Of a DNA stretch of 64,000 nucleotides, positions 33,692 to 53,577 are shown piece after piece. A program made the translations under genes and the position numbers. The notes beneath the pieces are model-generated. The model was given only the letters and a program-made list of their open reading frames with translations. It searched no databases and had not been told where the DNA came from. Within the stretch, counting starts at the first letter, position 1. Each line of letters opens with the position of its first letter. The stretch is from Nannocystales bacterium (lineage in GTDB: Bacteria; Myxococcota_A; Polyangia; Nannocystales; Nannocystaceae): contig JBOEGF010000022.1 in NCBI GenBank assembly GCA_050633305.1, positions 64,001 through 128,000 of the forward strand, given 5' to 3'.

Positions 33692-36244
33692 TCACCCCGC
33701 TTCCTGCGTCGCTGCAGCGAGGTCGACGTCGGTCTTGCCGGCTTCGAGGGGGACCCCGAGTCGGATGAACAACGACTTCGCCTCGCGGAGCTTCTCCAGC
33801 GCCAACTCCGACTGGTCGTCGACCTGCAATGCGTGTCCCCATGAGCGGAGCGTGTACGCGGTGGTCAGGTGCTCCTTCCCAAAGACGGACATCGAAAGCT
33901 CGACCGCAGCGGCGCTGACCTGGATCCCGTCTTGGGTTTGGCCCAGGGTCAGGAGGGCGTCGGACTCGGCGAGCATGCACTCGATTTCGCGCCACGAGTT
34001 CTTCCCGTGGACCGCCCGGACGATCCGTTTTGCCTCTCTTACGCTGTGCAGGGAACCTTCCGCGTCATCGAGCGCGCGTTGGGCAATGGCGAGGTTGGTC
34101 AGCGTGCTCACCAGGACCGGGTGTTCGGGTCCCAACACCGCGCGTTGTGCCTCGAGGACGTCGAGCAACTCGGCAAGAGCTTCGTCGGCCCGCCCGTTCT
34201 TTGCCCGCATTCCCGCCCGGTTCTGGCGGGCGAGCAAGACCCGCGGGTGCGTCGATCCGAACGAGGCGTACCCTATCTCCAACGCCTGCGCGTAGGCCCG
34301 TTCCGCCTCGTCGATGCGGCCACGCTGGTTGTCGATGTTGGCCAGGTTGGTCAGGACACGCATTCGCAGGGGTGAGCCGTCCTCGAGGTCCGCGAGGCTC
34401 CGCTCGTGAACGGCGGTGGCCTCATCCCAGCGTCCTGCGCTGGCAAGCACGGCACCCTCGTTGTTGAGCAGGGCCGAGCGCAGGGCGGGGGCGGCTCGAC
34501 CCTCGATCGCCGCGTGCCCCATTGCGGCCCAAGTCAGCGCGTGGTCGAAGGCGGCATCGATCTCTCCGAGCTCCCACGTCAGCCCGGCCGCGGCGCGTGC
34601 GAACGATTCGGGAAGCTGGGCGCGCTGGGACTCGATCGCGGCAGTGCGGAAGCCGGCGAGGGCCTCGTCATGGTCACCGAGCCAGCTTGCCGCGTCGGCA
34701 GCGACCAGGGTCGCTGCGACACAGGTCGGCGGATGGTCCAGGCTGGACGACGCGCATGCCTCCCGGACGGGAACGATCGCCTCGGCAGCGCGGTCGTGGT
34801 GCCCGGCCTCGAGCTCGGCTCGCCCGCGGGCGAGCACTTCGTTGGCGTTCTCGACATTCTGGCGAGCATCTGCGGGCACCGGGTGTGCGGTTCGCAAGGT
34901 CTCGATGTCGGCGCAGGCTTGGGGGGACGGCAGTGCGCCCACGGCCCGGACGGCCTTGTCGACCGCGGATGGGTCGGCCTCTAAGAATACATCCAGCTGA
35001 GCGTCAAATCGGGCGAGCTGCGCGTCGAGGCACCGTGTTCGTAGATCCAATCCTTGCGCGGACTGCAGGCCTCGCTCGTGGTCGAGACAAGCGTCGTACC
35101 TGGACTCAGCCCACTCGGTTGCCCAGCGGTCGAGGATCGCCTGGGCGGTGCGTCCACTGCTTGCTGCATGCGGAAGCGCTGTGGCTTCGAACGCCGTGGA
35201 CATCGCGGAGCGGGTTGTCTCGCTCCACCGCCCCGGCAGCCTCTTGCTGCCCTCACACGGTCGGTCTGACTGCCCGAACGCCACCCCTGCCGAGACGCCG
35301 AGGGTGACGACTACGACTCCGCCGAGCGTCCGTGTGTGTCGGGTGAGGGACCGGGCCAGCGCTGTGTCGAGCTCGCGCATCGAGGCGAATCGGTCCGCGG
35401 CGAGTGGAGCGAGCCCACGCTGCAGGACCCGCGAGATGCGAGTCGGTACAGCAGCGGCGGCCGGGGGCAGCGGAACCAGGTCCTTGGCCTGGCGCAGGGC
35501 GTCGAGGTCGTCCTGCGGGAACGGCGGTTGTCCGTAGACCGCCTCCCACAGCGCGACGCAGAAACAGTACTGATCGGTGCGGGCGTCGACACCATCCGCG
35601 CGGTGTTGCTCGGGCGCCATGTAGCGGGGGGTTCCCGCGGACCGCGTTTGTTCGGCACGCTCGCCGGCGTTGGCTTGGGCCGCGCCTGCCCGCGCGAGGC
35701 CGAAGTCGAGCACACGGACCCGACCGTCGGTTCCCAAGAGTGCGTTGGCGGGTTTGAAGTCTCGGTGGACGATGCCCGCGTCGTGTGCCGCGGCCAACCC
35801 GGCTGCCGCTTGGCGGTAGATGGCGACCACGGCTCGCCACCCCAGTTCCGTTGTGTCCATCGTGGACAGGGGCTTGCCGTCGACGAACTCCATCGCCAAG
35901 AACAACTCGTCGCCGGACTCGCCGACGTCGTGGACGGTGACCACGTTGGGGTGGGCGAGTTTGGCCAGGGCTCGGGCTTCACTGTGAAGCCCCTCCGTCG
36001 CGCCGCCGTGCAGCACCTTGATCGCGACCTTTCGGTCCAACCGGGGGTCCCAGGCCGAGTAGACGGCGCCGTAGCTGCCCTCGCCCAGCTTTTCGATCAG
36101 GGCGTACCGCTCGAGGGTGGGCGGCTTGGAGCTGCCAAACAACGCGCCCTGAATCCGCGCCATGGCCACGTCTTCTCCGACCTTGTCGATCGGAGGGGCG
36201 GGCAGGACGTCGGGGTCCGAGACCAGTCGGCGCGCGTCGACCAC
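33692..36244 (-). CDS. Ser/Thr protein kinase with TM and C-terminal TPR repeats
   Basis: GEGSYGAVY, VAIK, HRDFKPAN, DFG, GTPRYMAPE; TPRs with HP motifs. Start approximate. Confidence 0.92.
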   Translation of the reverse strand: MVDARRLVSDPDVLPAPPIDKVGEDVAMARIQGALFGSSKPPTLERYALIEKLGEGSYGAVYSAWDPRLDRKVAIKVLHGGATEGLHSEARALAKLAHPNVVTVHDVGESGDELFLAMEFVDGKPLSTMDTTELGWRAVVAIYRQAAAGLAAAHDAGIVHRDFKPANALLGTDGRVRVLDFGLARAGAAQANAGERAEQTRSAGTPRYMAPEQHRADGVDARTDQYCFCVALWEAVYGQPPFPQDDLDALRQAKDLVPLPPAAAAVPTRISRVLQRGLAPLAADRFASMRELDTALARSLTRHTRTLGGVVVVTLGVSAGVAFGQSDRPCEGSKRLPGRWSETTRSAMSTAFEATALPHAASSGRTAQAILDRWATEWAESRYDACLDHERGLQSAQGLDLRTRCLDAQLARFDAQLDVFLEADPSAVDKAVRAVGALPSPQACADIETLRTAHPVPADARQNVENANEVLARGRAELEAGHHDRAAEAIVPVREACASSSLDHPPTCVAATLVAADAASWLGDHDEALAGFRTAAIESQRAQLPESFARAAAGLTWELGEIDAAFDHALTWAAMGHAAIEGRAAPALRSALLNNEGAVLASAGRWDEATAVHERSLADLEDGSPLRMRVLTNLANIDNQRGRIDEAERAYAQALEIGYASFGSTHPRVLLARQNRAGMRAKNGRADEALAELLDVLEAQRAVLGPEHPVLVSTLTNLAIAQRALDDAEGSLHSVREAKRIVRAVHGKNSWREIECMLAESDALLTLGQTQDGIQVSAAAVELSMSVFGKEHLTTAYTLRSWGHALQVDDQSELALEKLREAKSLFIRLGVPLEAGKTDVDLAAATQEAG

Positions 36245-36248
36245 GGCC

Positions 36249-38414
36249 TCAAAACTGCGCCTGAAGTCCGCCGAGCACCAGCAGAGACTGCGCCTGGTCC
36301 CCGGGCTTGGGTCGGTTGCCCTCGTCCTCGGCGGGAGGCTCGAACTCCTGCTCGCCAAAGACGCCGCGAAACTGAACGACCAGCCGAAGCCAGCGACGCA
36401 GCCGGAATCTCAGGTCCAGGTTGGGCGAGACGATGAAGTTCAAGGTGTCGCCCGTGATGTCGTCGGCGCCCCGGTAGGGCAGCGAGAAGCCCATGCCCAG
36501 TCCTCCGCCAAGCGCGATGCGTTCTTGCAGGGACACGACCACCCCCGGCTCGACCAGAACCCGCGCCCACCCGATGCGGGCTTCGCCGCTCTGCTCGGAG
36601 GTCGTGTTGTCGCCTTCGAGGTTGCGCATCGGGGGGTCGAGTTCGTCGTCGGTGTCGTCGACGACCGGCACGCCCCAACGGCCCAAGGTGCCCCCGGCCC
36701 GCAGCTCGAATCCGACCCGGTTCCAGCCCGGACGCCGCGGCCGGAAACGGACGGCAAACATGCCCAGACCCGAAAAGTAGATCGGCGGGGTCTCGAGGTT
36801 GCCCGACCACGCGGGGCCGCCTCCGAACAACAATGAGAGGTTGAAGCTGACCCGCCGCGCGCCTCGCTCGGGGCGCCCCAGGACGAGCTCGCCGTCCTCG
36901 ACCGAGGCCACCAGCTCGTCGTAGGCCCGGTCGCCGCGAGGTTTGAAGCGCACGCTCTCGCAGGTTCCGCCGCGGCCTTGAAGCCCGGCGCCGGGGACCC
37001 TGAGCAGCAGGCGGTCGAGGTGCGTGACGCCGTACTCGCGCTCGGCTCCGTCCTCGCCGAACAACACGATGCCGCGGATCTGGTTGTCGGGCGTGGAGGT
37101 CTCCCACTGGTTGATGTTGGCCGCGAGGTAGACCTCGTCGGCGGCGACAAAGCTGGTGAGCTCTTGGCCGCTCTGCGCGAGCGTGTCGGTCCAGCGCTGG
37201 TTGGGGTCGTCCTTCTCGAAGGTGATCTGCAGCGGGAGGTCGAGGTCGAGGGCCTGCTCGGTGATGAACTCACCCGGGCACGAGTAGGCGCAGCCCGAGT
37301 CGGTGACCGTGGCCGCACAGGTCGTGCCGGTCTCCAAGGTGGCGTCCGGGCACGCGTCGCGGGCGTAGATGCACGGTGGGCGCCGCCAGGTGAACGTGAC
37401 CTGGTTGAAGTCGAGCGACATCGGGCTCTTGGGCCACTCACCCTCGAAGCTCCCGCCGAAGCGGGCCGCGCCCGAGCCTCCCTCGGGCGCGTCGAGCTCG
37501 ACGTCCACGCCGCCCACCCGAAGCGGTGCGGGCGGCATACGAATCTGGATGACTTCGGAGCCGACGAGGTTGCCCACGCAGCGTCCCGGCACGTAGTCGA
37601 TGCCGTTGATGCGCACGCCGAGGCGGTCGCGGTCCGCCGCATTGACCCGGGTCCGGGGCAGGCGGACCTCGACCATTCGACAGCGGGGGGTGAGGGCCAG
37701 CTGCACCGTGGTGGCCCGGCTGCTGCCATCCGTGTCGGCGCCCGGGTCTTCGGATCGGCCGCGTTCACTGCGTCGGTGCGAACGGTAGTAGCCACCGAGA
37801 CTCCGTGCCGTGACGATGACGCGGTCGAAGGGCGGGCTCATCACGCCGATCGTGGCGATGCCGCCGGCGAGCCGAACGCTTTCGATCTTCGGCGGCGATC
37901 CTTCGAGAAACTCGAGAAGTACGAACAGCGGCCGAGCTTCTTCGGACTCGCTGCCTTGGGTGAGGCTGTCGGCGGTGCAGGCGACGTGCAGCTCGTCTTG
38001 CCCGGACAAGCCACTGGGAAGCTCGATGCGGGGACGGCAGTCGGCCGAGGCGTCGTCGGAACATCGGAGTGCATCGACGGACTTGTCGTCGGCCTCTGGG
38101 TTCCAGACCGACGGCTTGACCCGCCAGCTGGTGCCGCGGACTCCGGTGACGGAGGACTCGGCCTGGGGCTCGAGAAGCTCGCGCAGCGTCTTGCGGGTGC
38201 GGGCACCCTTGCCCTCACTCACCACGCACAGATGCGTGGGCACGTCGGCGTCTTCGGGACGGAGGTCGAGGGTGACGACGCCGTATCCGTCACTCGCGTG
38301 GGCCAACGAGGGGGCGCCCAGGAGGACCAAAACGCCCAGAGTGAAGAACCACCCCGAGAATCCTCGGGGCAAACCTCGGGCGAGTCCCAGAAAGCGGTGG
38401 GTCAAGGTTTGCAT
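36249..38414 (-). CDS. Large secreted Cys-containing protein with C-terminal beta-barrel-like domain
   Basis: Real start MQTLTHRF (38414) overlaps the kinase stop; AHA signal cleavage site; ends LVLGGLQAQF (beta-signal-like). Confidence 0.65.
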   Translation of the reverse strand: MQTLTHRFLGLARGLPRGFSGWFFTLGVLVLLGAPSLAHASDGYGVVTLDLRPEDADVPTHLCVVSEGKGARTRKTLRELLEPQAESSVTGVRGTSWRVKPSVWNPEADDKSVDALRCSDDASADCRPRIELPSGLSGQDELHVACTADSLTQGSESEEARPLFVLLEFLEGSPPKIESVRLAGGIATIGVMSPPFDRVIVTARSLGGYYRSHRRSERGRSEDPGADTDGSSRATTVQLALTPRCRMVEVRLPRTRVNAADRDRLGVRINGIDYVPGRCVGNLVGSEVIQIRMPPAPLRVGGVDVELDAPEGGSGAARFGGSFEGEWPKSPMSLDFNQVTFTWRRPPCIYARDACPDATLETGTTCAATVTDSGCAYSCPGEFITEQALDLDLPLQITFEKDDPNQRWTDTLAQSGQELTSFVAADEVYLAANINQWETSTPDNQIRGIVLFGEDGAEREYGVTHLDRLLLRVPGAGLQGRGGTCESVRFKPRGDRAYDELVASVEDGELVLGRPERGARRVSFNLSLLFGGGPAWSGNLETPPIYFSGLGMFAVRFRPRRPGWNRVGFELRAGGTLGRWGVPVVDDTDDELDPPMRNLEGDNTTSEQSGEARIGWARVLVEPGVVVSLQERIALGGGLGMGFSLPYRGADDITGDTLNFIVSPNLDLRFRLRRWLRLVVQFRGVFGEQEFEPPAEDEGNRPKPGDQAQSLLVLGGLQAQF

Positions 38415-39970
38415 TCGTCGCTCGGCGTCACCGTGCACAGGTGATTGGTCCGGCAGGTGGTGCCCGGCGGCGGGCTCAAGGTCGTGGCCACAGAGTTCCC
38501 CGGCTTTCGACAGGTGTAACACGACCCCTTGTGCTCGAAGGTGCTGGCCCGCTTGCGACTGGCCCGGATGAACGAGCGCTTGTCCTCTTTGTAGAAGCAC
38601 GCCTGGCCGCGTTTCCTGGGCGCTTTGGAGGCCAAGGGCCCCGACTTCGTGGGCGCCGGAGGCGTGACCTCGACCTCGGAGGGCTCGACCCGTGTGGGCT
38701 CGGGCACAGCGTCTAGAGGCGCCTGGGGCTGCGCCGTCGCGGGCTCTGGGTCGGCGGGCACGAGCGTTGTGGGCTCGGGGTCGGCGGGTGCCGGAGGCGC
38801 CGTGGCGAGGGCCTGCATGGGTTCGGTGGACGGGGCGGACTCGGGGGGCGAGGGGTCGCCCCCGACGGCGATGCCGCTGCCCACCGCCGCCATGACGCCG
38901 ACGCTGATCCCCAGGGCCAAGAGCCACACTGTCCGGCGTTTTCGGGGCCGGGGATCGCTGAGCGCGGCCAGACCCGAGCGCAGAGCGTCGAGCAGCGCCC
39001 GCATGTTGGGATGGCGGTCGGCAGGGTCCCGGTGCAGGCCTCGCCGCAGCAGGTCGAACACCCACTTGGGGACCTCGGGGTGCTCGGGGACCCGCACCGC
39101 TTCTTCGTTGACCGCTTGGCGGTAGCGCGCGACCGTCGTGCCGTGGAACGGGGGGTGGCCGTACAGCCCCTCGTACAGCGCGACGCAGAAACCGAATTGA
39201 TCGGAGCGAGCCGTGGCGCTCAAGCCGGTCTCTTGCTCTGGCGCCATGTATTTGGGGGTGCCGAGCAGGGCGCCGGTGCGGGTGAGCGATGAGGAGACGG
39301 CGCCGTGGTCGACGGTGGCGCTGCCACTGTCGCCGGGGAGGAGCTCGTGACGGCCGGTCTCGCTGCCGGGGCCTCCGGCGAGACCAAAGTCGCCCACCCG
39401 AACCCGTCCGTCGGACCCAAGCATGACGTTCTCGGGCTTGAAGTCGCGGTGCACGATGCCGGCCTCGTGTGCGGCGGCCAGGCCCTCGCCCGCGTCGAGG
39501 TAGCAGCGCAGCGTGTCGCGCCACCCTGGGGTCTCGCGGTCGATCCACTTGGACAACGGGTCGCCATCGACCAGCTCCATCGCGATGAAGACACCGTCGT
39601 CGACCGCACCGACGTCGTACACATGAATGACGTTGGGGTGGGCGAGCTTGGCCATCGCTCGGGCCTCGCGGACCAAGCGCCCCCGGGCGCGACCTGCCTC
39701 CTCGTCAGAGACGGCCGCGGTGTTCATCAACTTGAGCGCAACGTCGCGGGCGAGCTCGGGGTCGTGGGCTCGGTAGACGACCCCCATGCCGCCCGCACCG
39801 AGCTTTCCTTCAACCCGATAGCGACCCACCTTGACCCGTTTTGCAGGGCCAGAGAACAATCGGTTCTCGATCGCGGCTCGTGCACGCCGGGCTTCGACGT
39901 CGTCGGCCTCGGGCGTGGCCGAACGAAGCGGGTCGTCCGCTTTCGGCGAGAACTGGGCACGAGCTGCCAC
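38402..39970 (-). CDS. Ser/Thr protein kinase with TM and Pro-rich/Cys-containing C-terminus
   Basis: GAGGMGVVY, VALK, HRDFKPEN, DFG, GTPKYMAPE. Start approximate. Confidence 0.92.
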   Translation of the reverse strand: MAARAQFSPKADDPLRSATPEADDVEARRARAAIENRLFSGPAKRVKVGRYRVEGKLGAGGMGVVYRAHDPELARDVALKLMNTAAVSDEEAGRARGRLVREARAMAKLAHPNVIHVYDVGAVDDGVFIAMELVDGDPLSKWIDRETPGWRDTLRCYLDAGEGLAAAHEAGIVHRDFKPENVMLGSDGRVRVGDFGLAGGPGSETGRHELLPGDSGSATVDHGAVSSSLTRTGALLGTPKYMAPEQETGLSATARSDQFGFCVALYEGLYGHPPFHGTTVARYRQAVNEEAVRVPEHPEVPKWVFDLLRRGLHRDPADRHPNMRALLDALRSGLAALSDPRPRKRRTVWLLALGISVGVMAAVGSGIAVGGDPSPPESAPSTEPMQALATAPPAPADPEPTTLVPADPEPATAQPQAPLDAVPEPTRVEPSEVEVTPPAPTKSGPLASKAPRKRGQACFYKEDKRSFIRASRKRASTFEHKGSCYTCRKPGNSVATTLSPPPGTTCRTNHLCTVTPSDECKP

Positions 39971-40007
39971 CTGGCGGGAATCTACACCGCCCGGGGGCTT
40001 GGCGCCG

Positions 40008-40841
40008 CTATGCTTCTGCGGAAGAAGCGCCGGACACCGAGGCTTCCGCATCGGACGGGGACTCCGCGGAGGGTTCGAGCTCGACCGGGAGCCAGTGTGT
40101 GACCCACGACATCCGCAGGAAAGAGAGCGCCAGTCCAGCCGCGACCAGCACCCGGAGTAGGCTGCTCACGTTGGAAGGCCCCAGTGCTTGCACCGCCAAG
40201 GGCGTCAGACTCAGCGCGAGGGCCAGTTTCAGGCCCCAAAGCCCGCCCGTGACCGCCACATACTGGGGGCGTTTGGCGGCTTCCACGAACCCTCGAAGGG
40301 TCGCCATCGGGTGATACGGCTTCTCGACCGAGTGCAGGCAGATCTGCGCCCGGACCAGGTCGCGCGCAAGGATGGCGAGCGAGACGCCGACGAGTAGGAC
40401 GATCCCGCGGATCGGGGTGGGCAGGGGGCCGAGGACGACCGAGAGGACCATCAGGCCGCCGAAGGTCACCACCGCGTGGACCAAGCCCTGGGCCAGCAGA
40501 GGCCCCGCAGCGGCGACGGCACCGCCAGCGGCTTCGCTCAGACGATCTCCCCGGGCAGCCAGGAATACGATCCCGCCCAGCGTCGTCCAGCCCAACCAGC
40601 TGAGCACGGCGGTGACCAGCGTCGCCGCGCCGATGCCCACCCCGAGTTCGGGATTGTGCAGCAGCACCTCGGTGAGCCGGGCGAGCGCATGCTCGACATC
40701 CGCCTCGCCGCCGAACGGGCCGAGGATGAACTGGGTCATCCACGCCACCAGGGAGCCACCGAGGATCGCCCACCCGAGCGTGAGTCCAAGCGTGAGCAGG
40801 TACACCCAACGGGTGTTCCACGCCGTGCGCAACACGCTCAT
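40008..40841 (-). CDS. Multi-pass membrane hypothetical protein
   Basis: About 6 hydrophobic segments; ATGA overlap with the M1 peptidase stop. Confidence 0.7.
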   Translation of the reverse strand: MSVLRTAWNTRWVYLLTLGLTLGWAILGGSLVAWMTQFILGPFGGEADVEHALARLTEVLLHNPELGVGIGAATLVTAVLSWLGWTTLGGIVFLAARGDRLSEAAGGAVAAAGPLLAQGLVHAVVTFGGLMVLSVVLGPLPTPIRGIVLLVGVSLAILARDLVRAQICLHSVEKPYHPMATLRGFVEAAKRPQYVAVTGGLWGLKLALALSLTPLAVQALGPSNVSSLLRVLVAAGLALSFLRMSWVTHWLPVELEPSAESPSDAEASVSGASSAEA

Positions 40842-42961
40842 GGGCTCACCCCCAACATCGCCGACAACAGGGCCGCCTCGGTGAGCTCGGCGAGGTCGCC
40901 GTCGGTCGTGACGGGTCGATCCGCACGCCGGGCGAAGCGGTGGTTGTCGATGCGTTTGGCTTCGAGCTCGAGGTGCCGATGGGGGTCGAGACTCACCGAA
41001 CGGATCCGACGCCCCGGAAACGTGAGCGTGTCGGTCGTGCGCACGCCGTCCCACCAGGCCTCTTCGATGCTGCCATCCTCGAACGTCACGGCGTACTGGA
41101 CCGGGGTGATGAAGGGCCCCGAGCGTTCGAACACGACGAGACCCTCAGGTCCGCGCGCATCGGGCACGTTTGGGCTGCTTGCATCGTCGGCGCCGGGGTC
41201 CAGGGAGGTTCGGGCGGACGTCTCGGGCCGCGGGGTCTCGACCCATGTTCCGTCTTCACCGCGGTGCCAACCAGCATCGCCGAGCTGGGTCCGGTTCTCG
41301 ACCCAGCGGACCGAGAACGCGATCGAGCGAGGGGTGCGGAAGGCCTGTTGAAGCCAGTCGCGCACATCGAGGGTGACCGCCGGAGAGAGGGCGAGCAATC
41401 CGGGCGCGGCAGGGTCGTCCTCGAGCGCGGTGGTGAGGGTGTTGAAGAAATCCTCGGGGCTGGGGTGCCCGAACCGGAACGCGTCGGTGTACGTGCGAAG
41501 GGCGTCGTCAAAGCGCTGGTGGCCAACGAGATTGCGCAGCGATCGGAGCGCGGCGGCGGTCTTGCGATAAACCGTGCGGCCGTAGAGTGCCTCGGATTCT
41601 GCAAACTGGTCCGCGCGCTGATCGATGACGGCGATGTTGTCCAGCCGAGCCATATCCAGCCGCAGCAAGTCGCCGGAGTCGAGGGGGTGGCCCAAGACCT
41701 TCACCGCCCAGTTGCCCTCGCGGGAATCGTCGAGCACGAGCGTGTTGGAGAAGGTGTTGAGACCTTCGTCGAGCCACGGCGCTTCGGACTCGTTGGACGC
41801 GAGCAGACCCTGAAAGAACTGGTGACCGAATTCATGCACGGTGGTGAAGCGGCCATCGAGGCGCATCTCCACCATGGAGCCGAGCGGGGCCGGGATCTCC
41901 AGGAGTGGGCCGCTGGTGAAGAAGGTGGGGTACTCCATTCCGCCAGCCCCTCCCGCCTGGGCGGGTGGGTGGACGATGGTGATGCTCGACCACGGGTATG
42001 GGCCGAAGCGTCGCTGCATCGAGTCGAGAGCCTGGACCTGGGCATCGAGGTGGACCTGGGCGTCTTGCCAGGTCTGCGGGGTGTGCAGCTGCCGGATCCG
42101 GATCCCCTCGTGCGTCGCGATGTGCTCGACGTAGTTGGGCGAGGCCGTCCAGGCGAAGTCGTGCACCATCTGGGCCTCGTAGGTGTGGCGAACCCTTCCG
42201 CTGTCGTCATCCTCCTCTCGGGTTCGGATGCCGGTTGCGCCCACGACCCAGCCCTTGGGGACGTCGAGAATCACGCGGTAGTCGCCGAAGTCGGCGAAGA
42301 ACTCGGAGTGGAAGGTGAAGACGTGGTTGTTCCAGGTGCCGTCGTCTTGAAGGACGCCAAGCTTGGGGAACCACTGTCCGGCCAGCACGAACTGGGTGTG
42401 CTCGTCGGCCTGGTACCCGGTCCGTGCAAACACCTCTGGGAGGTCGGTCGTGAACCCGATGTCGACCTCGACCTCCGCGCCGGGTGCGAGCGGCCGGGCG
42501 AGGGGGATCGTGGCCACGGTAGGGTCGGAGCCTGGAACGAGGGAGAGGGCTTGGTCGTCGCGCGTATCTCGGATGGAGGAGATCGTCACCCGGCCCCACG
42601 GAGCCGTCGAGCCCTGACCGCTGGTGCGATGGGAACCGCGGCCCTCGCTCATCCACGCCGTGTCTTCCGCCGAAAAAGCGTTCATATAGAGGTGGACGGC
42701 CAGGTGATCGACGGCGACCCGGCTGCGGTTGCGGAACGTGATCCGCTCCAATCCCTTGATCCGGAAGCTCTCCTCGTCGAGCTTGGCGTCGATGGCGTAG
42801 TTGGCGATCTGGGCGTCGTCTGGCATCGAGCCGCGTTGCTCGGCCGGTCGTAGAGGCTCGGTGGGCTCATCGATCTGAAGGCCCACGCTGCGTGGCCTTG
42901 CACCGCTGTCGCACGCGGACAGCGCGAGTGCGGCAACGCAGGGCAGGAGAAACACGCGCAT
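40838..42961 (-). CDS. M1 family (gluzincin) aminopeptidase lipoprotein
   Basis: LSAC lipobox; GGMEYP, HEFGH..WLDEG, VY.K motifs. Confidence 0.92.
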   Translation of the reverse strand: MRVFLLPCVAALALSACDSGARPRSVGLQIDEPTEPLRPAEQRGSMPDDAQIANYAIDAKLDEESFRIKGLERITFRNRSRVAVDHLAVHLYMNAFSAEDTAWMSEGRGSHRTSGQGSTAPWGRVTISSIRDTRDDQALSLVPGSDPTVATIPLARPLAPGAEVEVDIGFTTDLPEVFARTGYQADEHTQFVLAGQWFPKLGVLQDDGTWNNHVFTFHSEFFADFGDYRVILDVPKGWVVGATGIRTREEDDDSGRVRHTYEAQMVHDFAWTASPNYVEHIATHEGIRIRQLHTPQTWQDAQVHLDAQVQALDSMQRRFGPYPWSSITIVHPPAQAGGAGGMEYPTFFTSGPLLEIPAPLGSMVEMRLDGRFTTVHEFGHQFFQGLLASNESEAPWLDEGLNTFSNTLVLDDSREGNWAVKVLGHPLDSGDLLRLDMARLDNIAVIDQRADQFAESEALYGRTVYRKTAAALRSLRNLVGHQRFDDALRTYTDAFRFGHPSPEDFFNTLTTALEDDPAAPGLLALSPAVTLDVRDWLQQAFRTPRSIAFSVRWVENRTQLGDAGWHRGEDGTWVETPRPETSARTSLDPGADDASSPNVPDARGPEGLVVFERSGPFITPVQYAVTFEDGSIEEAWWDGVRTTDTLTFPGRRIRSVSLDPHRHLELEAKRIDNHRFARRADRPVTTDGDLAELTEAALLSAMLGVSP

Positions 42962-43009
42962 CGAGGCATCGGTACCACAGCCGTTGCGCGGCGGTACACT
43001 GCCCGAGAA

Positions 43010-43540
43010 GTGCAGCTGCACGGTTTGAACCAGAGCGAACTCGAAGGGTTGGGCGAGCGTCTGGGAACGCTGGTCACGCCGGGGGTGGTGTTGCTTCTCG
43101 AAGGGCCGATGGGGGCGGGCAAGACCACCTTCACGCGGGCGCTCGGACGCGGCATGAAGCTCGATCGCCCCGACCGCGTTTGCAGCCCCACCTTCAACAT
43201 CTGTCTCACCCATGCCGGCCCAGTCCCGCTGCTGCACATGGACCTGTTTCGGCTTGCCCCCGATGATGGCGATGGGCCCGCGCCAGCGTCGTTTGAGGCG
43301 CTTGGCTTGGAGGCGCTGCTGGACCGGCTCGCCGACGAAGACCCGGACGCCGAAGCGGACGACGGTGTGTTGGCGATCGAATGGTCGAACCTGTGGCGGC
43401 AGTCCGACCTGGATGCCCTCACGCTCCGTTTGTCCCGCCCGAACCCTGAGTCTCGCGACCTCGAGGCCGTTGCGGGCGGTCCGCGGCACGCAGCGCTCCT
43501 GAGCCGCTGGGCTGCTGCTGGGCCGCTCCAGGGCGGGTAA
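43010..43540 (+). CDS. tsaE: tRNA threonylcarbamoyladenosine biosynthesis ATPase TsaE
   Basis: LEGPMGAGKTTF, SPTF, HMDLFRL, IEW. Confidence 0.88.
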   Translation: MQLHGLNQSELEGLGERLGTLVTPGVVLLLEGPMGAGKTTFTRALGRGMKLDRPDRVCSPTFNICLTHAGPVPLLHMDLFRLAPDDGDGPAPASFEALGLEALLDRLADEDPDAEADDGVLAIEWSNLWRQSDLDALTLRLSRPNPESRDLEAVAGGPRHAALLSRWAAAGPLQGG

Positions 43541-43609
43541 ACGAGGCGTTTCGCCCCGCGGGCGTGAGTCGGATGACAAGATCGGCGCCTTGTGAGGCGA
43601 TCCGGGGCC

Positions 43610-43820
43610 CTCAAAACGCCCGCCGAGGGCGAAAATTCGGTTCCTAGGCGGATTTCGGGCTTTCCACGGCGCGAAAATCGGGTTTATGGTGCGTCGGCGG
43701 GCGCGGATGCCGACGTCTGGAAATGGCCACCAATGGCCGTCTACAGCCGTTCTTCATGCTCTGGCCCACACGTTCAACCCTTTTGCCTCAACGCAAACTC
43801 GAAAACGCTAAGGAACAATC
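43610..43820 (+). promoter_or_regulatory. Upstream regulatory region and RBS of the histone-fold gene
   Basis: A/T tracts about 10 bp apart (43613-43687), AATGGCC direct repeat at 43722 and 43732, AAGGA Shine-Dalgarno at 43810-43814. Confidence 0.45.
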
Positions 43821-44015
43821 ATGGCCCGTTCGTCCAAGCCCAAGGAAATTGTCGTCGTCGGTTCGAAAATCAAGGAAGTCGTCAAGGAAGCCGGCCTCCG
43901 CAGCGACGGAGAGCTCGTCCAGGCTGTCTCCGACAAAGTGCACGAGTTGCTCGGCGCCGCGATCAAGCGCTGCCAAGACAACAACCGCAGCACGGTTCGC
44001 CCGTACGACCTCTAA
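43821..44015 (+). CDS. Prokaryotic histone-fold protein (short alpha3 class, Bd0055/Leptospira HLp-like)
   Basis: 64 aa: VVVGSKIKEVVK (alpha1), GLRSD (L1), long alpha2, RSTVRPYDL (RxTxxxxD). Good RBS and a downstream hairpin. Confidence 0.88.
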   Translation: MARSSKPKEIVVVGSKIKEVVKEAGLRSDGELVQAVSDKVHELLGAAIKRCQDNNRSTVRPYDL

Positions 44016-44020
44016 TCTTA

Positions 44021-44045
44021 GAGGGACCCTTCACGAGGGTCCCTC
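44021..44045 (+). terminator. Perfect 10-bp hairpin just after the histone stop codon
   Basis: GAGGGACCCT-TCACG-AGGGTCCCTC; no U-tract. Confidence 0.6.
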
Positions 44046-44050
44046 GCTGC

Positions 44051-44128
44051 GGAGGCGAAGCCTCCTCCGCTTCACCCGTAGCGAATCCGTGGATTCGCGA
44101 AGGTGCCGAGCGAATCCACCGGATTTGC
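44051..44128. repeat. Three additional hairpins, two sharing the GCGAATCC arm
   Basis: GGAGGC-GAA-GCCTCC; GCGAATCC-GT-GGATTCGC; GCGAATCC-ACC-GGATTTGC. Confidence 0.6.
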
Positions 44129-44431: not shown

Positions 44432-45442
44432 TTGAGCGGCTATCCCATCGATCGTGCCAGCTATCGGACTCTCGATCCCGATTGGGAGGGGCAGGTCGTC
44501 ATCGCGGACATCGATCGAACCTACCTCGCCACGCGATTCTCGAGCATGAAGGGAATGCTTCGCATTCCCTTCGAGCGTGCCGCGCAGAAGCGTGACATCG
44601 AGGGGATGGCGCGACTGCTCCGGGAGCTCCGACGGGGCCCAGGGCGCATGACACGGGACACGCCCCTGTTTTTCCTGTCAGCCAGCCCCAAACAGCTGCG
44701 GCCGGTCATCGAGCGCAAGATGGGGCTCGATGGGATCAGCTTCGACGGGACGACATTCAAGGACTGGGGCCGGGTCCTGCGCGCCGGCTGGCCCAAGCGG
44801 ATCACCGAGCAGATCGGGTTCAAGCTCACCGCGCTCCTGACCTCCCGGTCGCACATGCCACTGGGCGCCCACGAGCTGCTGCTGGGCGATGACCTGGAGA
44901 CGGACCCAATCACCTACGGTCTGTATGCCGACGTCCTTGCGGGCCGGATTCCGACCTCAGACCTGGCCCGCGTACTGCGGCACAACGGGGTGGGGCATGC
45001 CGACGCTGCGCACATCGAGCGCCTGCGCCGGGACCTGGAGCCCGGCCGAGGGGTTCGCAAGGCCTGCATTCGGCTGGAACGGCACCAAGACTCGGACGAC
45101 TTCTTGGAGTTTGGCCCGGGTGTGATCGGCTGCCGCGGTGCGTTCCAGATGGTGGTCGTGCATTGGCGCATGGGCCTGGTGTCGCTCTCGGGTGTGGGGC
45201 GTGTGGCGGCCGCGTTGGCGTCCCGAGGGGTTTCGCCCGATTCGCTGGGCCGGCGGATGCACGACCTGCGCCGCCGCGCGATGATCGACGCCGACGAGGT
45301 TCCTCAGGTACTGCAGACGGTTCGCGAACACGGCGTCGAGATGGAAGACCAGTCCTTGCCCGACCCAGACGCTCGGTGGGTCGAGGTTTGGCAGCGGTCC
45401 GAGGATCGGGTGTGGACACCCGAGGCCTACGTCGGCAGCTAG
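44432..45442 (+). CDS. HAD-like phosphatase (App1/LNS2-like phosphatidate phosphatase domain)
   Basis: IADIDRTY (DxDxT), FLSASP, K, LLGDDLETD (HAD motifs I-IV). Confidence 0.72.
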   Translation: MSGYPIDRASYRTLDPDWEGQVVIADIDRTYLATRFSSMKGMLRIPFERAAQKRDIEGMARLLRELRRGPGRMTRDTPLFFLSASPKQLRPVIERKMGLDGISFDGTTFKDWGRVLRAGWPKRITEQIGFKLTALLTSRSHMPLGAHELLLGDDLETDPITYGLYADVLAGRIPTSDLARVLRHNGVGHADAAHIERLRRDLEPGRGVRKACIRLERHQDSDDFLEFGPGVIGCRGAFQMVVVHWRMGLVSLSGVGRVAAALASRGVSPDSLGRRMHDLRRRAMIDADEVPQVLQTVREHGVEMEDQSLPDPDARWVEVWQRSEDRVWTPEAYVGS

Positions 45443-45660: not shown

Positions 45661-46281
45661 GTGAAGTTCTACGAAACCCAAGGATTCCCCAACCCTATCC
45701 GTGTTCGTGTTGCCCTGGCGGAGAAGGGGCTGCTGGACCAAGTGACGGTGGTGCCCGTGGACGTGATGGCCGGGGAGCACCGCCAAGAGCCGTTCTTGGC
45801 CAAGAATCCCTCCGGAGCGGTTCCGGCGCTGGAGCTCGACGACGGCACCGTGTTGGCCGAGTGCACGGCGATCACGGAGTATCTCGACCACGCGGTCGGG
45901 GAGCCGACGCTGACGGGAACCGACGCCCGCGAGCGCGGAGTGATCGCAATGGCACAGCGCCGGGCAGAGGCAGGGTTTCTCGACGCGGTCGCGGCCTACT
46001 TTCACCACGCGACGCCGGGCCTGGGACCGGAGCTCGAGACGTACCAGAACCCACAGTGGGGCGAGCACCAGAAAACCCGCGCACTCGACACGATGGCGGC
46101 GATCGACGGTTGGCTGGCCAACCACGAGTTTGTGGCGGGTGACCGGTTCACGGTCGCGGACATCACGACGCACGCAGGCATCGTGTTCGGTGGGTTTGCG
46201 AAACTCGACGTGCCCGCGTCATGCTCCAATCTCCGGCGCTGGCACGAGACGGTCCAAGCCCGCCCGAGTCTGTCGGCCTAG
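45661..46281 (+). CDS. Glutathione S-transferase family protein
   Basis: PNPIRVRVALAEKG, NPSGAVPAL, ECTAITEYLD, GDRFTVADI. Confidence 0.93.
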   Translation: MKFYETQGFPNPIRVRVALAEKGLLDQVTVVPVDVMAGEHRQEPFLAKNPSGAVPALELDDGTVLAECTAITEYLDHAVGEPTLTGTDARERGVIAMAQRRAEAGFLDAVAAYFHHATPGLGPELETYQNPQWGEHQKTRALDTMAAIDGWLANHEFVAGDRFTVADITTHAGIVFGGFAKLDVPASCSNLRRWHETVQARPSLSA

Positions 46282-52082: not shown

Positions 52083-53225
52083 TCACCCCTCCAGCATCGC
52101 GAGCCCCAGCGCGGTGGAGAACGACTCGATGTCGAAGTTCTCTGCGGTGTTGGTGCCGATGACCACCCGGCTGTTGATGGCCGGCACGTCGAGGGCGACG
52201 CCGCCGAACCCGAAATCACCGCCGCCAGCATAGCCGAACACGTCCTGCCCCCCGACATCCGTTGACCGCAGGTATCCGGCGGCGTAGGCATCGAATGCCG
52301 CGGGTTCCAGCACGTTCCCCGCCCACAGCTCGATCAGCCAACGGTCAAGGTCCTCGACCGTGGTCACCAAGCCGCCGTTGCCGACCAGTGCCCAGGTGTA
52401 CGGCCACGTCGCGGGATCATTGCCCTCGAACACAAGGGCATCGTACCCGACGGCGGTCGGATGCTCGGCCCACAGCGCCTCCCCGAAGAACCCCGTCGCC
52501 TCCATACCAGCGGGCTCGAGCAGTCGCTCCCGCACGTAGTCCGCGAACGGTTGGCCGGAGGTCGTTTCAACGATGTCGGCCAGCAGCGTGAACCCAGCGT
52601 TCGAGTACGCTTCCTCGGATCCGGGCTCGAACAAGAGGGTCTGTCCGAGGATCGCCGCGCGGGCCTGCATGCGATCCATCGGCTCGAAGTCGCCCAGCGT
52701 GTCGTGGTACTCGCCAAACCCGGCCCGATGCTGCAACACCTGCAGCACCGTGATCTGGGCCTTGTCGGGCGGGATGCCGGGCAGCAGGACGTCCAGTGAA
52801 TCGGTGGTGCTCAGCGCGTCGTCTTCCTCGAGCGCAAAGATGGCCGCTGCGGTGAAGTCCTTCATCACCGAGCCGAAGTCGTAGGCCGTCTGCGGTGTGT
52901 TCTCGCGCTCGAGCTGCCGGGCGGCCAGGCCGTGTCCTTCCACGACCAAGACCTCGCCATCGAGCCGGACCAGGATTGCTCCCTCGAAGCCGGACTCCAC
53001 GGCTTCGTCGATCAGCTCGCGAACCGCACCGCCGGGCGCGGCGGTGGTGCTGCTCGATGCGTCGCCCGGTCCCGCGCTGCTTTCGGTGCTCGAGACCTCG
53101 CTGCTCTCATCACCGGTCGACCCGATGTCGCTCGTGGTCCCGCCTGCACCGGGCCCGTCGGGAGAGCCGACGCAGGCCGCGAGCAAGCCCAGAAACGACA
53201 ACCACGCGGCCGAGAACCTCTTCAC
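52083..53225 (-). CDS. Serine hydrolase (class C beta-lactamase/PBP-like) lipoprotein
   Basis: LAAC lipobox; SVMK (SxxK), LQHRAG, YSN, PAGM, GNGGL. Confidence 0.88.
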   Translation of the reverse strand: MKRFSAAWLSFLGLLAACVGSPDGPGAGGTTSDIGSTGDESSEVSSTESSAGPGDASSSTTAAPGGAVRELIDEAVESGFEGAILVRLDGEVLVVEGHGLAARQLERENTPQTAYDFGSVMKDFTAAAIFALEEDDALSTTDSLDVLLPGIPPDKAQITVLQVLQHRAGFGEYHDTLGDFEPMDRMQARAAILGQTLLFEPGSEEAYSNAGFTLLADIVETTSGQPFADYVRERLLEPAGMEATGFFGEALWAEHPTAVGYDALVFEGNDPATWPYTWALVGNGGLVTTVEDLDRWLIELWAGNVLEPAAFDAYAAGYLRSTDVGGQDVFGYAGGGDFGFGGVALDVPAINSRVVIGTNTAENFDIESFSTALGLAMLEG

Positions 53226-53577
53226 GGCTGCCCAACGAGCGCCGGGCGGAAAAGGTTCCCTCGAAGTTTCGGTCGAAGGACTGCGCGCTTCTCGCGGGAC
53301 TTGTCTTGTGCGGGAAGTGAACGACGCGGGCCGGTGCCAAGGAGCCCCGCGGTATCTCTCACTTGCGGACGCGGTCCCGGTGACCCGGGAGGTCGTCATG
53401 GCCGAACTCGGGCGTCTGAACAAGGACGGCTACGACATGGCGCAGTTCATCTCCATCATGGGAGAACACCTCCCCAAGAGCTTGCCCGGGCCGTTGCGGA
53501 CGTCCCAGCTCGACAAGCGCTCGTCCTGTCCTCCACCGAGTCGTGGGGGCCTTCAGGCCGTGTTATGAGGCGTCTCC

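Follow-up and report, generated by a model that had tools for sequence, protein, structure and literature searches.

A probable face-to-face histone with a truncated third helix encoded by a Nannocystaceae myxobacterium

Introduction

Does a myxobacterium carry a histone, and if so, would this histone bend DNA as a dimer or wrap it as a tetramer? The question is raised by an open reading frame (ORF) of 64 amino acids (aa) in a 64,000-nucleotide stretch of DNA from a Nannocystales bacterium (GenBank assembly GCA_050633305.1, contig JBOEGF010000022.1, positions 64,001 to 128,000), hereafter referred to as the window. To our knowledge, bacterial histones have been recognised recently and only two of them have been studied in depth, namely HBb, a DNA-bending dimer, and HLp, a tetramer that wraps DNA. 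A first-pass annotation of the window, made from its letters, had described the ORF as a standalone prokaryotic histone gene. We find that the ORF is a genuine gene maintained by purifying selection, with a product predicted to adopt the histone fold with a truncated third helix (alpha3) at which the chain ends. In all probability it is the Nannocystaceae orthologue of an alpha3-truncated face-to-face (FtF) histone related to HLp, which would form tetramers, wrap DNA and have a role in the nucleoid.

Sequence, predicted fold and histone class

A word-indexed protein search with the window protein returned 226 proteins at E <= 0.001 among 235 candidates, and an exhaustive search of cluster representatives returned 302 at the same threshold. 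Few of the homologues are named; they appear as hypothetical proteins, 'DUF1931 family protein' or 'histone H3/H4', in Nannocystaceae, Nannocystis and Myxococcota records. Among Protein Data Bank chains, phmmer matched HLp (9qt0) best, at E 6.3e-10 over residues 6-63; HBb (8cmp/8fvx) followed at 4e-3 to 5e-3 and HTkC (9f2c) at 0.03. A profile made from an alignment of 68 homologues (A1) gave 8.4e-24 (86.5 bits) for HLp, 3.1e-14 (55.9 bits) for HTkC, 3.5e-13 (52.5 bits) for HBb and 19.3 bits for HmvA. By these comparisons, the bacterial FtF histones are the nearest class to the window protein, ahead of the dimer and nucleosomal ones.

The AlphaFold 2 (AF2) model computed with an alignment has a predicted local distance difference test score (pLDDT) of 74.7; it shows two helices (residues 14-23 and 32-53) and, near the end of the 64 residues, a brief helical turn (61-63). 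This model suggests a layout of alpha1 at ~14-23, loop L1 at 24-31, alpha2 at 32-53, loop L2 at 54-60 and alpha3 at 61-63, in keeping with the 3-4 residues that alpha3 has in the alpha3-truncated histones of Schwab 2024. Foldseek matched it to HLp (9qt0_A) with an E-value of 5.9e-5, template modelling (TM) scores of 0.83/0.94, a root-mean-square deviation of 0.9 A and 36% identity, and to HBb with a TM score of 0.79. Among the matches listed, ranks 1-9 were held by HLp, HBb and HTkC, followed by eukaryotic histones, TAFs and NF-Y. The histone fold with truncated alpha3 that had been read from the letters is therefore borne out by the model and by its structural matches.

Which residues speak for one class over another? 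In excerpts of Hu 2025 (PMC12701072), the tetramer residues of HLp are R49, S52, N53, R55, T61 and F63, with a clamp between R55 and D62, and its DNA-backbone contacts are A13, S14, K15, K17, K21, T27, G29, T56 and T57. We mapped these by HMMER alignment, in which the window number equals the HLp number plus 1. The interface equivalents are R50, D53, N54, R56, Y62 and L64, with the clamp at R56-D63, and the equivalents of the DNA contacts are G14, S15, K16, K18, K22, S28, G30, S57 and T58, so that all nine DNA-backbone contact positions are retained or conservatively replaced. Across A1, D63 is invariant and S15, K18, A47, R50, N54, R56 and T58 are conserved in at least 90% of the homologues. 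The R-x-T-x4-D motif (RD clamp) is present as R56, T58 and D63; the chain terminates as R56-S-T58-V-R-P-Y-D63-L64 followed by a TAA stop and carries 12 K/R against 9 D/E, precisely as first described.

In the HMMER alignment, S and D take the places of R50 and N54 in HBb. This is consistent with excerpts of Schwab 2024 (PMC11390915), in which the dimer class is without the conserved FtF residues R48 and N52, which are R49 and N53 of HLp in that paper's numbering. The first-pass annotation had taken the chain end at DL as a mark of the FtF tetramer class; the class assignment stands, whereas DL alone does not separate the classes and R50 and N54 do. The nucleosomal archaeal (HMfB-like) type, which has a longer alpha2 and an alpha3 of about 10 residues, does not fit either, as alpha3 here comprises one turn and the Pfam model PF00808 scores under its cut-off.

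A model of four copies with A1 scored 0.88 in 3/3 runs, compared with 0.15 for the best of 3 controls; at least 95% of the contacts agreed between runs and the partner pLDDT was at least 89. In this model the scored copy meets one copy along residues 9-64 (40-40, 36-44, 28-59), as in a handshake dimer, and touches residues 49-50, 53-54, 56, 60 and 62-63 of another copy, which are the homologues of the HLp interface. The modelling proposed in the first-pass annotation thus yielded both a handshake dimer and a predicted second interface, and the latter supports an FtF geometry.

Alternatively, the protein could act like HBb of Bdellovibrio, as a stable dimer that bends DNA locally and forms no FtF tetramer and no wrap. 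Indeed, HBb is a significant match in sequence, by single sequence as well as by profile, and in fold; the truncated alpha3 and the R-T...D motif are common to both proteins; at three of the six interface positions the residue differs from that of HLp; and excerpts of Schwab 2024 (PMC11390915) report bacterial dimer histones in Myxococcota_A, among others. However, R50 and N54, which are missing from the dimer class, are present and at least 90% conserved, and the profile places HLp ~34 bits over HBb. The four-copy model sets a confident second interface on the HLp residues, with the caveats of memory and calibration that are given in the Discussion, and the HBb-like domain of this genome is found in another gene, the ZZ histone described below. 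We therefore regard an HBb-like mode of action as unlikely and favour, like the first-pass annotation, the FtF tetramer class over the dimer class.

Gene, coding evidence and flanking signals

The histone gene and its flanking signals are as follows, in window coordinates:

43821..44015, + strand: histone coding sequence, paralogue A, 64 aa (ORF translation, homology, third-position bias, codon usage)
43810..43814, + strand: ribosome-binding site AAGGA, 6 nucleotides (nt) 5' of the ATG
43661..43690, + strand: promoter-like block TTTCCA-N18-TATGGT (upstream alignment A2, 11 orthologous loci)
43661-43666 and 43685-43690, + strand: -35-like and -10-like hexamers of this block, ~130 nt 5' of the start codon
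44021..44045, + strand: perfect 11-bp GC-rich hairpin, 6 nt past the stop, with no U-run after it
44049..44070, + strand: second, shorter hairpin directly 3' of the first

The translation of the ORF matches the one first quoted exactly, and its own ribosome-binding site is in place. An in-frame TAA at 43809-43811, 12 nt 5' of the ATG at 43821, leaves this ATG as the sole possible start. Upstream lies non-coding DNA, as had been noted, its length being at least 241 bp up to the M1 peptidase gene at 43579 rather than about 280 bp. The ORF is also easily missed, as the first reading warned, because longer ORFs of 215 aa and 166 aa overlap it in other frames, which is not surprising at 67% G+C.

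Given this overlap, the short length of the ORF and the fact that Pfam and NCBIfam models all stay under their cut-offs, a chance open frame in GC-rich DNA has to be weighed. The GC content at codon positions 1/2/3 is 0.64/0.38/0.81, and that of the window is 0.669. We compared the ORF with 23 of 63 orthologous loci, namely those where the match spans residues 1-64 without length change, partial or length-variant loci being left out. The nucleotide differences at codon positions 1/2/3 amount to 138/87/428 (653 in total); at one locus 8 nucleotides differ and the encoded protein is identical, and the stop codon follows immediately after the terminal DL in 23/23 orthologues. The 64-aa ORF is a real gene under purifying selection. 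The third-position bias, together with the significant matches to solved histones among its many homologues, refutes a chance frame, to which we assign practically no weight.

The upstream alignment A2 covers 11 orthologous loci that represent several genera, and all 11 regions share the ATG and the AGGA core without change. Within the promoter-like block, alignment columns C81, T83, T84, C86, G101, G102, G103, T104, T106, A107, G110 and T111 are invariant, while the flanks vary. This pattern points to a putative promoter. A sigma-70 consensus scan called 0 promoters, and it missed the block because 8/12 positions match (manual count) where the scan needs 9. An RNA-library contig from a relative ends at 43703, 13 nt past the -10-like hexamer, which is a weak hint, given that such contigs cannot show a transcript start.

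Downstream, the hairpin announced by the first-pass annotation proved to be two, which jointly (44021-44070) reach -35.2 kcal/mol with a z-score of -4.2; 0/200 shuffles folded equally well. A terminator scan made no call on the + strand 3' of the gene, and its two hits on the - strand, inside the gene, are at chance level; the hairpin at 44021-44045 was not called since it lacks a T-run. It is likely to mark the transcript 3' end or to act as a stabiliser. A similar hairpin sequence past the stop is found in an RNA-library contig of a relative (loose end X16).

Indications of expression

We calculated a codon score as a log-ratio between 17 ribosomal-protein genes (contig C43, 2,539 codons) and 655 long background ORFs of the same genome. 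The window histone (histone A) scored +0.118 and a second FtF histone of the genome (paralogue B) +0.097, both inside the leave-one-out range of the ribosomal-protein genes (-0.01 to 0.14), although such a score is a noisy proxy over 63 codons. Among 63-codon background chunks, 0.3% reached the score of A and 0.7% that of B. Background-like scores were obtained for the ZZ histone (-0.195) and for five window neighbours (-0.04 to -0.20). This ribosomal-protein-like codon usage suggests that histone A is abundant.

RNA-library contigs from four runs of four studies span close relatives of the gene (mostly 90-99% alike); they derive from relatives of this organism and show presence only, not level, strand or ends. 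No RNA run reached half of the sampled words. In three contigs the match breaks off near 44070-44077, yet the contig continues as unlike sequence, which indicates divergence rather than a 3' end.

Two predicted metagenomic proteins (P0161 and P0254) are mosaics of histone fragments and stretches that, by eye, resemble GroES, EF-Tu, PII and RRM proteins. Both have the look of chimeras assembled from abundant transcripts and, if so, would give a weak hint that the histone message was abundant in those samples.

Genome context, paralogues and distribution

The genome that contains the window measures 11.0 Mb in 90 contigs and is 92% complete. The neighbours of the histone gene and the related genes elsewhere in the genome are:

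40838..43579 of the window, - strand: M1-family peptidase gene, divergent neighbour (Pfam Peptidase_M1 2.9e-18)
44432..45442 of the window, + strand: APP1-like phosphatase gene, 417 bp past the histone stop (Pfam APP1_cat 1e-11)
L002:1498-1707 (G000:C7 ~328128-328334), - strand: FtF paralogue B (P0269, 69 aa), 78% identical to A over the core
L003:1162-1689 (G000:C43, histone part ~247535-247714), + strand: ZZ-type histone (P0270, 175 aa), HBb 4.4e-11
L005, L006 and L007 (contigs C24, C4 and C6): three HU/IHF-family (PF00216) genes of the same genome

The gene is standalone in being monocistronic, but it is not the only histone gene, as two more histone-fold genes are found in the genome. Paralogue B has a lysine-rich N-terminal tail and no Cys51, is convergent with ftsZ in this genome and in 5/6 B-type loci elsewhere, and narrowly passes the DUF1931 model (22.0 vs 21.8 bits). 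In A-type proteins the tail is short and Cys51 forms part of an R-C motif, whereas the B type has R-A there and K-R-G-T in L2; synteny and these sequence signatures set the two types apart. Two matches at E <= 1e-14 occur in 18/36 family genomes, as counted from the survey table. Cys51 itself (codon 43971-43973), next to the interface residue R50, is found in nearly all A-type orthologues; every B-type protein has Ala there, and HLp has Thr.

The third histone, P0270, combines an N-terminal Cys/His-rich zinc-finger-like region with a C-terminal HBb-like domain, an architecture named ZZ histone in excerpts of Schwab 2024 (PMC11390915); a Pfam search of this protein gave no match. BLASTP yielded no alignment between it and the window protein, and their relation emerges with HMMER only (6.7e-4, or 6.5e-13 with the profile) and also through HBb.

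A survey of 60 related genomes, the window's own included, found a match to the histone gene in 35/35 other genomes of the same family and in 7/24 genomes of other families of the class. With profile A1 at E <= 1e-8, matches occur in 93/301 genomes across the phylum, with families ranging from 18/18 to 0/26; as the profile also detects ZZ- and dimer-type proteins, this figure stands for alpha3 histones in general and not for the FtF class. The survey of Myxococcota proposed in the first-pass annotation, which had placed the gene in a myxobacterium, thus agrees with that placement, the relatives being Nannocystaceae, Nannocystis, Enhygromyxa, Plesiocystis and Paraliomyxa. The nearest orthologues in named records belong to metagenome-assembled genomes (MAGs) of Nannocystaceae, Nannocystales or Myxococcota. 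Cultured hosts of orthologues are Paraliomyxa miuraensis, Enhygromyxa salina, Plesiocystis pacifica and six Nannocystis genomes, those of strain RBIL2 and of five named species, among them N. exedens DSM 71 and N. punicea, whose chromosome is complete.

The M1 peptidase gene lies upstream and divergent in 40/41 loci (L019-L059, tblastn), and the APP1-like gene downstream in 17/41. Such strongly conserved neighbourhoods, with the convergent ftsZ next to B, could speak for a histone-fold regulator or a protein-protein adaptor tied to the M1 peptidase or, for B, to division. Moreover, the HU/IHF genes could serve the bulk nucleoid role, and excerpts of Schwab 2024 (PMC11390915) caution that histone-fold proteins are not all genome organisers. 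Yet the nine DNA-backbone contact positions of HLp are retained or conservatively replaced and no extra domain is present; the codon usage suggests a protein made in quantity, not a regulator present in few copies; and divergent or convergent neighbours imply no co-transcription. We find a regulator or adaptor quite improbable, even more so than an HBb-like dimer, and keep to an FtF histone that would bind DNA.

Further away in the window are two genes for eukaryotic-type Ser/Thr protein kinases, at 33692-36358 (-; Pkinase 1.6e-38, with TPR repeats) and 38402-40051 (-; 1.1e-39), as well as a glutathione S-transferase (GST) gene at 45661-46281 (+) and a beta-lactamase-family gene at 52083-53423 (-).

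Related architectures elsewhere

Tandem histone doublets of 140-185 aa were observed in a Planctomycetota MAG (L066:3716-4138, +) and in P0122, P0123, P0125, P0129, P0131, P0139, P0141, P0158 and P0159. They start with a hydrophobic, signal-peptide-like segment ending in A-x-A, followed by a near-copy of the N-terminus of the window histone; the first half is ~85% or more like the Nannocystaceae A type and the second half has diverged. AF2 modelled the L066 doublet with a predicted TM score of 0.70 and pLDDT above 90 in both folds. Foldseek gave no match for this model at E <= 0.001, and the rows returned were mostly histone doublets or pseudodimers, plus HLp, HBb and HTkC. A literature search for face-to-face histones with a signal peptide found no paper. 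From its sequence, the L066-type doublet may be an exported histone pseudodimer.

Six metagenomic proteins (P0124, P0132, P0133, P0140, P0143 and P0155) combine a signal-peptide-like N-terminus, an RRM_1 domain (Pfam 1.6e-14 to 2.8e-5) and one or two FtF-type folds, an architecture that is seen in six separate 50%-identity clusters. In addition, a histone stretch of 12-18 residues (end of alpha1, L1 and start of alpha2) and, separately, the N-terminal 18 residues recur at ~100% amino-acid identity in otherwise unrelated ORFs of Alphaproteobacteria and Planctomycetota, with ~80% nucleotide identity and synonymous codon switches (L076:3992-4237, L077:4007-4294, L075:1576-1830, L074, L078, L071, L079 and L080). 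Three Rhodobacteraceae/Paracoccaceae ORFs are alike beyond the shared stretch, and a homologue search with them returned only 3 proteins.

Discussion

How could such a small protein organise DNA? In the mechanism that we propose, two chains would pair as an antiparallel 'handshake' histone dimer, and two such dimers would join twice, in equivalent ways, to give a ring-like tetramer. In each of the two contacts the last part of alpha2 would combine with loop L2 and the one-turn alpha3 (R50, D53, N54, R56, Y62 and the C-terminal L64), with the R56-D63 clamp keeping L2 in shape. The rim might then hold DNA without sequence preference, through residues of alpha1 (G14-S15-K16, K18 and K22) and of L1 and L2 (S28, G30, S57 and T58). 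By analogy with HLp, each tetramer would wrap ~60 bp and thereby compact the nucleoid. The gene would be transcribed as a monocistronic unit from the conserved promoter-like block and ended by the hairpins, and histone A would probably be abundant, beside the lysine-tailed paralogue B, the ZZ-type histone and HU/IHF.

Several points weigh against this interpretation. The scores of the window protein stay below the curated cut-offs of the Pfam models DUF5805 (PF19121; 21.3 vs 28.5 bits), CBFD_NFYB_HMF (PF00808; 16.1 vs 21.4 bits) and DUF1931 (PF09123; 15.4 vs 21.8 bits), and an NCBIfam search gave no match. Three of the six interface positions are changed with respect to HLp (D53 for S52, Y62 for T61 and L64 for F63). 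The four-copy result may reflect memory, as the HLp tetramer had already been solved. Furthermore, the mark that the model passes, reached by 20/30 proteins solved as one-chain pairs and by 1/23 solved as single chains, was calibrated with two copies rather than four and with another kind of alignment, and the output describes the contacts of one copy, from which we infer the closed ring. To these add the noise of the codon score and the presence-only nature of the RNA-library contigs. Finally, with three HU/IHF genes, a second FtF paralogue and a ZZ histone in the same genome, histone A need not be the main nucleoid organiser.

The closest known system is HLp of Leptospira perolatii (9QT0/9QT1/9QT2; PMC12701072), which is the best match in both sequence and structure. 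The two proteins have 63 and 64 aa, end in a one-turn alpha3 and share R49, N53, R55 and D62 of HLp as R50, N54, R56 and D63; they differ in overall identity, which is only 36-37%, in the three interface substitutions above and in their neighbours, smc and map for HLp and the M1 peptidase and APP1-like genes here. In the genome of the window, histone A is accompanied by FtF paralogue B, the ZZ histone and three HU/IHF genes, whereas Leptospira has one histone and no HU in excerpts of PMC12701072. HTkC of the archaeon Thermococcus kodakarensis (9F2C) also forms FtF tetramers with a truncated alpha3 and is a more distant match. According to excerpts of a recent preprint (bioRxiv 10.64898/2025.12.06.692711), R45 near the end of its alpha2 is needed for tetramerisation and contacts the C-terminal carboxyl; by analogy, a similar contact could be the reason for the strictly conserved R50 and chain end here. 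HBb (Bd0055) of Bdellovibrio bacteriovorus (8CMP, 8FVX, 9EZZ) has the truncated alpha3, a similar size, the R-T...D motif and the alpha1 lysines in common with the window protein, but it has S and D at the R50/N54 positions and is a DNA-bending dimer. At the Nannocystis exedens, Enhygromyxa salina and Plesiocystis pacifica loci, the encoded proteins are 72-80% identical to the window protein and keep the R/N/R...D-L signature.

Histones of the FtF kind are already known, and so is their occurrence in Myxococcota and in species of Nannocystaceae. Excerpts of Schwab 2024 (PMC11390915), repeated in Hu 2025 (PMC12701072), place bacterial FtF histones mainly in Spirochaetota, Planctomycetota, Bdellovibrionota and Myxococcota; Fig. 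1A of Hu 2024 (PMC11317129) names, in its legend, histones of Nannocystis exedens (WP_096326703.1), Enhygromyxa salina (WP_052547863.1) and Plesiocystis pacifica (A6GF99). Since the legend, in the part available, gives no aligned sequences, these three accessions are not assignable to paralogue A or B. A full-text literature search for Nannocystis-type names together with the histone fold returned Hu 2024 (PMC11317129) only, and one for a myxobacterial FtF histone returned no paper; a term search of Hocher et al. 2023 gave no hit for Myxococc-, Nannocyst-, Plesiocystis, Enhygromyxa or Deltaproteobacteria. In the literature searched we found no published experiments on any myxobacterial histone and no published description of two syntenic paralogues, supplements (e.g. 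Schwab Figs 6, 8) being outside the search. New here are the family-wide occurrence of the gene (35/35), the two syntenic FtF paralogues, the ribosomal-like codon usage and the co-occurrence with a ZZ histone and HU/IHF in one genome.

Food for speculation is why two FtF paralogues should be kept. It is possible, if rather doubtful, that Nannocystaceae possess a histone-variant system, in which ancient A and B types are made at ribosomal-protein-like levels and form homo- or mixed tetramers atop the ZZ histone and HU/IHF. The hosts of this system may be organisms with genomes of 4-13 Mb, in which the gene for A, with its short tail and Cys51, lies beside that of the M1 peptidase and the gene for B, with its lysine-rich tail and no Cys, beside ftsZ. 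If true, the culturable, non-pathogenic Nannocystis, Enhygromyxa and Plesiocystis would offer a counterpart to histone variants in bacteria. In a bolder extension, the A-type sequence may have been recruited outside the cell, as signal-peptide histone doublets in other phyla.

For the family, a first consequence is a correct annotation for a gene that is left as 'hypothetical protein' in some public records. According to excerpts of PMC12701072, bacterial FtF histones stem for the most part from uncultured organisms, and the cultured hosts with a complete genome that are named there are two species of Leptospira only. Cultured, non-pathogenic myxobacteria such as N. punicea and N. exedens DSM 71 carry clear FtF histones with the tetramer signature intact. 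Nannocystaceae are therefore a practical system in which to study how a nucleoid is shared between histones and classical proteins, and bacterial histone variants.

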